From positions 1 through 12,108 of IMG/VR virus record IMGVR_UViG_2737471846_000027: a stretch of 12,108 bases of DNA; one strand, 5' to 3'. This stretch comes from a virus. Its lineage: Duplodnaviria > Heunggongvirae > Uroviricota > Caudoviricetes. A program made the position numbers and the translations under genes. Under the pieces are notes generated by a model, which was not told the origin of the DNA, made no database searches, and saw only the letters and a list, made by a program, of their open reading frames with translations. Positions 5,612-6,022 of this stretch are shown here, in pieces. The number at the start of each line of letters is the position of its first letter. The first letter of the stretch is position 1.

Positions 5612-6022
5612 TCAGAACGGAATATCATCACCGTAGGGGTCATCGTCTCCCGCTGGTGGCTGATTACCCTGTGCGCCTGTGGTTTTGCGTCTGTTCCCGC
5701 CAGGACGTGCCGCACGGGCACTGATTACGCTGTCTGCAATAACCTGATAACCCTGCCGCGTTTCCCCGTTCTGTCCGGTCCACTGGCTTATCTGCATCAC
5801 GCCAGATATGCTGGCAACGTCGCCTTTTTGATGTTTAGCCAGGAAGTCGGCCTGCTTACCAAATGCCATCACCGATAGCCATAACGTAGCCGTTCCGTCA
5901 TCTGCCTGGCTGCACGGAAGGGGGACCGCCATACGCGCCAGCGTCATCGGTGTGCCCTTGCTGGTCTGTTTTACCTGCGGGTCGTCCACCAGCCGCCCGT
6001 AAGCGGCTATCTGTGCCGTCAT
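5612..6022 (-). CDS. ssb: Single-stranded DNA-binding protein (SSB) with a short linker and a conserved acidic C-terminal tip (DDIPF)
   Basis: The 136-aa product has an OB-fold core alignable to E. coli SSB (LWLSVMAFGKQADFLAKHQKGDVASISGVMQISQWTGQNGETRQGYQVIA versus [50 protein letters not shown]) and ends ...DDDPYGDDIPF. Its start overlaps the upstream ORF stop (ATGA). Confidence 0.88.
   Translation of the reverse strand: MTAQIAAYGRLVDDPQVKQTSKGTPMTLARMAVPLPCSQADDGTATLWLSVMAFGKQADFLAKHQKGDVASISGVMQISQWTGQNGETRQGYQVIADSVISARAARPGGNRRKTTGAQGNQPPAGDDDPYGDDIPF

Follow-up and report, generated by a model that had tools for sequence, protein, structure and literature searches.

The open reading frame at 5612–6022 of the 12,108-nt stretch of DNA analyzed here (the window) is a genuine bacterial-type SSB gene, situated in the replication module of an island with the gene content of a phage satellite. 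Judging from the sequence of this gene and of its surroundings, we think that the product probably serves as an accessory SSB in replication, recruiting host factors by means of its acidic C-terminal tip. The observations on which this model is built are the identity of the SSB, the position and order of its gene, purifying selection, conservation of the tip, and restriction of this SSB clade to satellites.

The translation of the open reading frame, whose C-terminus is ...GDDDPYGDDIPF, is identical to RefSeq WP_000126680.1 of strain JNE151685. It matched Pfam PF00436 (SSB) over residues 5–99 with 56.4 bits against a cutoff of 26 (E=3.5e-15), and PHROG 44 ('single strand DNA binding protein') with E=3.4e-38. 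Among solved structures, 23 distinct SSB sequences were matched; the best was Thermotoga maritima SSB (1z9f; E=2.8e-10), and E. coli SSB (1eqq) gave E=2e-5. An AlphaFold2 model calculated from a 30-sequence alignment had pLDDT >90 from residue 1 to ~103, with a strand and helix pattern of the OB type, and pLDDT <50 at residues 108–126. When this model was compared to the PDB with Foldseek, the top 50 matches were all bacterial SSB OB domains, with target-normalised TM scores up to 0.84. Thus, the family, structure and fold comparisons bear out the original prediction that the island has its own SSB with a conserved OB fold, and the HMM search for the SSB family proposed as a check on that prediction placed PF00436 well above its threshold. 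The NCBIfam ssb subfamily model (TIGR00621) scored 52.8 bits, 1.15 bits short of its cutoff of 53.95, indicating that the protein belongs to a somewhat divergent SSB clade; PGAP names it an SSB despite this sub-cutoff score. Coordinates of the gene, its domains and the surrounding features are collected in Table 1.

Table 1. Features of the island and of its ssb gene (positions in the window).
Feature	Position	Strand	Basis or remark
att repeat, 21 bp, ACTACACCATTAACTACACCG	1547..1567	+	phoQ-side island boundary, 86 bp past the phoQ stop codon
Packaging module	2950..5374	-	family matches
Nu1-like TerS	2950–3504	-	packaging module
D-like decoration protein	3766–4101	-	packaging module
Lambda-E-like major capsid protein (Phage_cap_E)	4113–5168	-	packaging module
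orf68	5168–5374	-	packaging module
Two hairpins directly 3′ of the ssb stop codon	5533..5605	-	GGCCGGAG..CCGGCU, then U-run; second hairpin with 14-bp arms
ssb CDS	5612..6022	-	ATG start, 136 aa plus stop codon
Acidic C-terminal tip, residues 128–136, DPYGDDIPF	5615..5641	-	alignment to E. coli SSB
Linker, residues 104–127, AARPGGNRRKTTGAQGNQPPAGDD	5642..5713	-	alignment, AF2 pLDDT
OB-fold DNA-binding domain, residues 1–103	5714..6022	-	alignment to E. coli SSB, AF2, Foldseek
Small ORF, 83 aa (104 aa from alternative start at 6333), phrog_1231	6019..6270	-	function unknown
Iteron cluster, ten GGTAGAKRG copies in both orientations	6379..6603		between the primase stop codon and the small ORF
Primase/replicase, 584 aa	6617..8371	-	D5_N + DUF5906 + Pox_D5; TIGR01613 P4-family primase
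DUF4222 protein	8368..8667	-	profile match
AlpA-family regulator	10326..10514	-	family match
Tyrosine integrase	10879..12108	-	start codon at window edge

The dN/dS of the OB domain, calculated against relatives, was 0.08–0.22, which shows that purifying selection acts on ssb and that it is no chance open reading frame. This result also bears on whether ssb might be a dispensable passenger, carried along by modular exchange and of no significant function. A passenger would be in keeping with the host's own supply of SSB and with the absence of SSB from the PICI core markers, but the low dN/dS values, together with an intact frame and a conserved tip in hundreds of variants found in ~26% of complete E. 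coli genomes, make this explanation very unlikely.

Like E. coli SSB (178 aa; PDB 1eqq, 1eyg), the island SSB consists of an OB core, a disordered linker and an acidic tip, although the two proteins are only 27% identical in a pairwise alignment. Three of the four E. coli aromatic residues that contact ssDNA (W40, W54, F60 and W88) are conserved, with W54, F60 and W88 represented by W48, F54 and W81 in the island protein; the L23 loop is shorter by five residues and therefore lacks an equivalent of W40. A Leu takes the place of His55, which is important for the tetramer of E. coli SSB. The island SSB presumably forms a homotetramer and binds ssDNA. As originally predicted, the DDIPF tip is conserved: the final five residues are identical in the island tip and in that of E. 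coli SSB (MDFDDDIPF), an aromatic residue at position -6 is common to both, and D[DN]IPF is constant across E. coli variants of 136–149 aa while the linker varies. The SSB of a satellite in Klebsiella sp. I138 (L008 10001–10444; 59% identical, 147 aa) ends in ...PPYDDDF and not in ...DDIPF, and hence the tip motif of the clade varies between genera.

The post-OB tail comprises 33 aa in the island SSB compared to 65 in E. coli SSB, and the linker proper comprises ~20–24 aa (19 aa when defined by pLDDT <50, with predicted disorder at residues 108–126) compared to 56. Lengths of ~30 versus ~60 residues had been given for the linker; these values are right for the whole post-OB tail. The island linker is also less rich in Gly, Gln and Pro than its E. 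coli counterpart (combined fraction 0.42 vs 0.66) and more basic, with 4 Lys or Arg residues, and its proximal part, SAR..RPGG, is conserved within the clade.

The linker had moreover been described as truncated. To place its length, we searched 1.84 billion proteins (50%-identity representatives) exhaustively with HMMER, which returned 5,120 relatives of the island SSB, and took length statistics from the 102 with a complete OB domain among the best 150 of the 5,120. For these 102 nearest complete relatives, the median length was 136 aa and the median post-OB tail was 35 aa. Close E. coli homologs had 136, 140, 141 or 149 aa and differed in linker indels only, with SAR..RPGG and D[DN]IPF kept. 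Linkers of bacterial SSBs range from ~25 to 125 aa (Shinn et al., PMC7145534). By these comparisons, a short tail is the norm of the clade, at the low end of the published linker range, and the short linker can therefore be taken as the ancestral state of a divergent clade rather than that of a shortened host copy. We therefore rejected truncation as a derived feature. A recent duplication of the host ssb gene was likewise rejected, as the two proteins share so little identity and the best solved match is that of Thermotoga, not E. coli. The T. maritima protein resembles the island SSB in size and in having a short C-terminal tail; however, it is the chromosomal housekeeping SSB of a thermophile, whereas the island SSB is an accessory mobile-element protein in a host already equipped with a long-linker SSB. 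E. coli SSB needs its linker to bind with high cooperativity; cooperativity is lost when the linker is made more charged, and variants with shorter linkers show more self-binding between tip and OB core (PMC7145534). By analogy to these E. coli results, the short and relatively basic linker of the island SSB predicts cooperative binding weaker than that of the host SSB.

The island in which ssb resides occupies a site between phoQ and roxA in E. coli. The window begins with phoQ, and the island extends from ~1547 to just past 12108 (~10.6 kb). The 21-bp repeat at the phoQ side is probably the att core; in a related locus (L001, strain JNE151685), a second copy marks the other island end, 27 bp past the int start codon. 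The int start codon is exactly where the window stops, and the second att copy therefore falls outside it. Five core components define PICIs, namely an integrase, an AlpA-type regulator, a primase-replicase, a capsid(-morphogenesis) gene and a small terminase (de Sousa et al., PMC10085698). All five are present here as int, AlpA, a P4-family primase, the Phage_cap_E capsid gene and Nu1 TerS, and the island can therefore be classed by gene content as a Gram-negative PICI, with helper-dependent induction, replication and transfer as putative properties. It has further PICI features in a size within 10–20 kb, mostly one gene direction, a probable ori downstream of pri, and att repeats, and profile searches of the window found no tail or lysis gene families. 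This gene content agrees with the original description of the SSB as encoded by an island.

The nearest complete E. coli genome, that of JNE151685, covers 85% of the window at 97.8% identity and differs at the TerS end. Although its capsid, ssb and primase genes match at 100% identity, its Nu1-like TerS (L001 6463–7047) is only 56% identical and lies in the opposite orientation; the island is mosaic at its packaging end. A 314-aa ORF at 9324–10268 on the minus strand has no family match and overlaps small plus-strand ORFs, in a region whose length differs from that in JNE151685; this ORF is probably spurious, as related islands hold YlcI/YnfO-type and other short genes there.

Reading leftward, the replication module contains the primase gene, the iterons, the small ORF and ssb, an order that confirms the predicted location of ssb downstream of the primase and ori. 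In the annotated contexts that we inspected, the DUF4222 gene was always just 5′ of the initiator gene. The GGTAGAKRG motif had 12 matches in total, a number reached by 0 of 200 shuffles, and the iteron cluster is probably the island ori. The stop codon of the small ORF overlaps the ssb start codon (ATGA), and a strong ribosome-binding site for ssb, GGAGAGGTGG, lies inside the small ORF; from this arrangement, the two genes are taken to be translationally coupled. The small ORF had no Pfam, NCBIfam or PDB profile match, its AF2 model was helical and of low confidence (pLDDT 62, pTM 0.28), and its homologs occurred in Escherichia, Shigella and Citrobacter only. The stretch between the primase gene and ssb contained no promoter-like site on the minus strand. 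The hairpin region downstream of ssb, for which z = -3.6, is probably the terminator of the replication operon. Searches of the window for structured RNA gave no Rfam match at gathering thresholds and no tRNA. A near-perfect palindrome at 5402–5433 with 15-nt arms (AATCACAACTGGATG / CATCCAGTTATGATT), 5′ of the orf68-capsid operon and 3′ of the ssb hairpins, could be an operator or a second terminator.

Close relatives of ssb (at least ~80% nucleotide identity) were present in 1,424 of 5,426 complete E. coli genomes (~26%), with up to six copies per genome. The annotated contexts inspected, nine of nine, were replication modules of PICIs or capsid-forming PICIs (cf-PICIs), and all nine, including the O157:H7 island at roxA, had the order DUF4222, initiator, gap, small ORF and SSB. 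Among 80 IMG/VR loci, the small ORF was directly 5′ of ssb in 74 of 79 assessable cases, and an initiator gene was just 5′ in 70 of the 71 loci with enough upstream sequence. The initiators in these 80 loci were D5-type primases (32), RepA-family helicases (34) and DUF927 proteins (4), and the downstream capsid genes were lambda-E-like (47) or HK97-like (29). Thus, SSB is almost always paired with the small ORF, whatever the initiator and the capsid module. A single-protein scan of genome contigs found 5 loci only, of which three were satellite-like loci from Klebsiella containing int, AlpA, Bro/Ash and a DUF927 primase-helicase, followed by SSB. No close relative was found by tblastn in 50,697 phage records, where all matches were <35% identical and none came from an enterobacterial phage. 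We therefore rejected an origin from a sequenced phage and regard the clade as satellite-specific.

The coupling of the small ORF to ssb, and their joint presence in these loci whatever the initiator or capsid, would be expected if the two proteins promoted recombination-dependent replication or formation of the concatemers needed for packaging, and E. coli PICIs are indeed packaged as concatemers (PMC10111431). This explanation is speculative, however, in that the small ORF has no family or solved-structure match, its AF2 model is unreliable, and the window encodes no recombinase, and we judge it quite unlikely.

In the accessory replication model that we prefer, a helper phage would activate AlpA-dependent transcription of the island, leading to expression of a leftward operon, presumably co-transcribed, of DUF4222, primase/replicase, ori, small ORF, ssb and terminator. 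The primase/replicase would open the iteron ori just 3′ of its own gene, and the island SSB, presumably as a tetramer, would coat the single strands thus exposed. Its DDIPF tip would then dock host SSB-interacting proteins, with Pol III chi, DnaG and PriA among the candidate contacts, and the host replisome would copy the island. The satellite would thereby have SSB of its own at a time when its DNA and that of the helper are both amplifying, which may benefit its replication. For E. coli SSB, chi and DnaG are among the proteins bound by the tip (PMC6783573), and the tip has at least 17 partner proteins (PMC7145534). The replacement of His55 by Leu and the TIGR00621 score just under the cutoff count against the model, as does the use of host SSB by the satellite P4 for its replication. 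The island SSB is unlikely to be strictly required for replication, because SSB is not among the five PICI core components (PMC10085698). Moreover, the same SSB cassette pairs with three unrelated initiator families, which disfavours a specific initiator-SSB partnership. This initiator independence is the main observation that a simple 'partner of primase' model leaves unexplained, and it would allow the protein a role outside replication in the strict sense.

One such role would be competition through the host-identical DDIPF tip, as the main function of the protein in place of coating island DNA, for host SSB-interacting proteins such as ExoI/SbcB, RecJ, RecQ, PriA and chi, with the result that satellite replication intermediates or concatemers are shielded or that replication of the helper phage is disturbed. 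Strict conservation of the tip in E. coli islands while the linker drifts, the independence of the cassette from initiator type, and the satellite-specific distribution of a clade absent from sequenced phages are all consistent with this role, as is a recent preprint (10.64898/2026.04.29.721553) on a phage SSB-like protein, with FDDDIPF as its tip, that acts through host ssDNA metabolism and is proposed to be a competitor of SbcB. Strong purifying selection acts on the whole OB domain, including its DNA-contact aromatic residues, however, and a protein serving purely as a tip decoy could do without this. The position of ssb in a replication operon beside the ori fits replication, and shorter linkers raise self-binding of the tip to the OB core (PMC7145534), which would make a poorer free decoy. 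We therefore consider competition rather unlikely to be the main role, although the data agree with either of the functions originally proposed, support of island replication or competition for host SSB partners. It is also unlikely, to a slightly greater degree, that the coupled small ORF and SSB form a satellite-specific cassette in which a short-basic-linker SSB is specialised beyond bulk coating of ssDNA; such a cassette may, for example, capture host SSB-partner proteins at the expense of the helper, or protect or process concatemers together with the 83-aa partner.

Phage-encoded SSB-like proteins with a host-like tip, such as Bas52_0087, the DRT10 trigger, are thought to engage host ssDNA-processing factors (preprint 10.64898/2026.04.29.721553). 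Bas52_0087 resembles the island SSB in having an OB fold, a disordered C-terminus and an FDDDIPF-like tip, but differs in having two OB domains and in coming from a virulent phage. Since SSB-like proteins of mobile elements have been reported as defence triggers (same preprint), and satellites commonly carry defence and counter-defence genes (PMC10085698), the island SSB might mask ssDNA from host immunity, or act as a trigger or anti-trigger of defence that senses SSB or ssDNA. No PADLOC model matched the SSB or its neighbours, however, nothing in the locus ties ssb to defence, and its conserved position is in the replication zone rather than an accessory zone. A link of ssb to a defence system was rejected on the PADLOC result, and a role in host immunity is highly improbable.

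The replication-zone SSBs of Gram-negative PICIs and cf-PICIs, of which the island SSB is a further member, belong to the same family and occupy the same position; that of the O157:H7 cf-PICI at roxA is 92.6% identical and follows the same small ORF. These loci differ in initiator (D5, RepA or DUF927) and capsid module, and in nothing substantive otherwise. 'Primase, SSB and DUF5906' make up the Replication category of Gram-negative PICIs and co-localise with mapped origins (Mageeney et al. 2023, PMC10111431), and the main texts of the cf-PICI paper and the SatelliteFinder paper (PMC10085698) do not mention SSB. The existence and placement of the gene are thus already known, through RefSeq annotation and the listing of SSB as a PICI replication-zone family, and the finding is less novel than the original prediction implied. 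In the searchable literature, we found no paper with an experimental test of PICI SSB function and none that asks why a satellite needs its own SSB beside that of the host. The gene is useful here chiefly for a correct annotation of the window, as a PICI-type satellite whose replication module is complete; the SSB as such is a routine component that had been annotated before. It is of modest interest that a quarter of complete E. coli genomes carry a satellite-restricted SSB with a conserved partner ORF.

A plasmid SSB was also considered and rejected, as the few 'plasmid' matches were records with satellite genes and not the leading-region SSBs of conjugative plasmids. Two circular records deposited as non-mobilizable plasmids, CP088587.1 (L014, 32.6 kb) and NZ_CP033626.1 (L013, 22.9 kb), carry int, an AlpA-type or HTH regulator, primase, ssb and phage structural genes, and the Klebsiella record of the two has duplicated segments. 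Both are probably excised satellites or concatemers that were assembled as plasmids.
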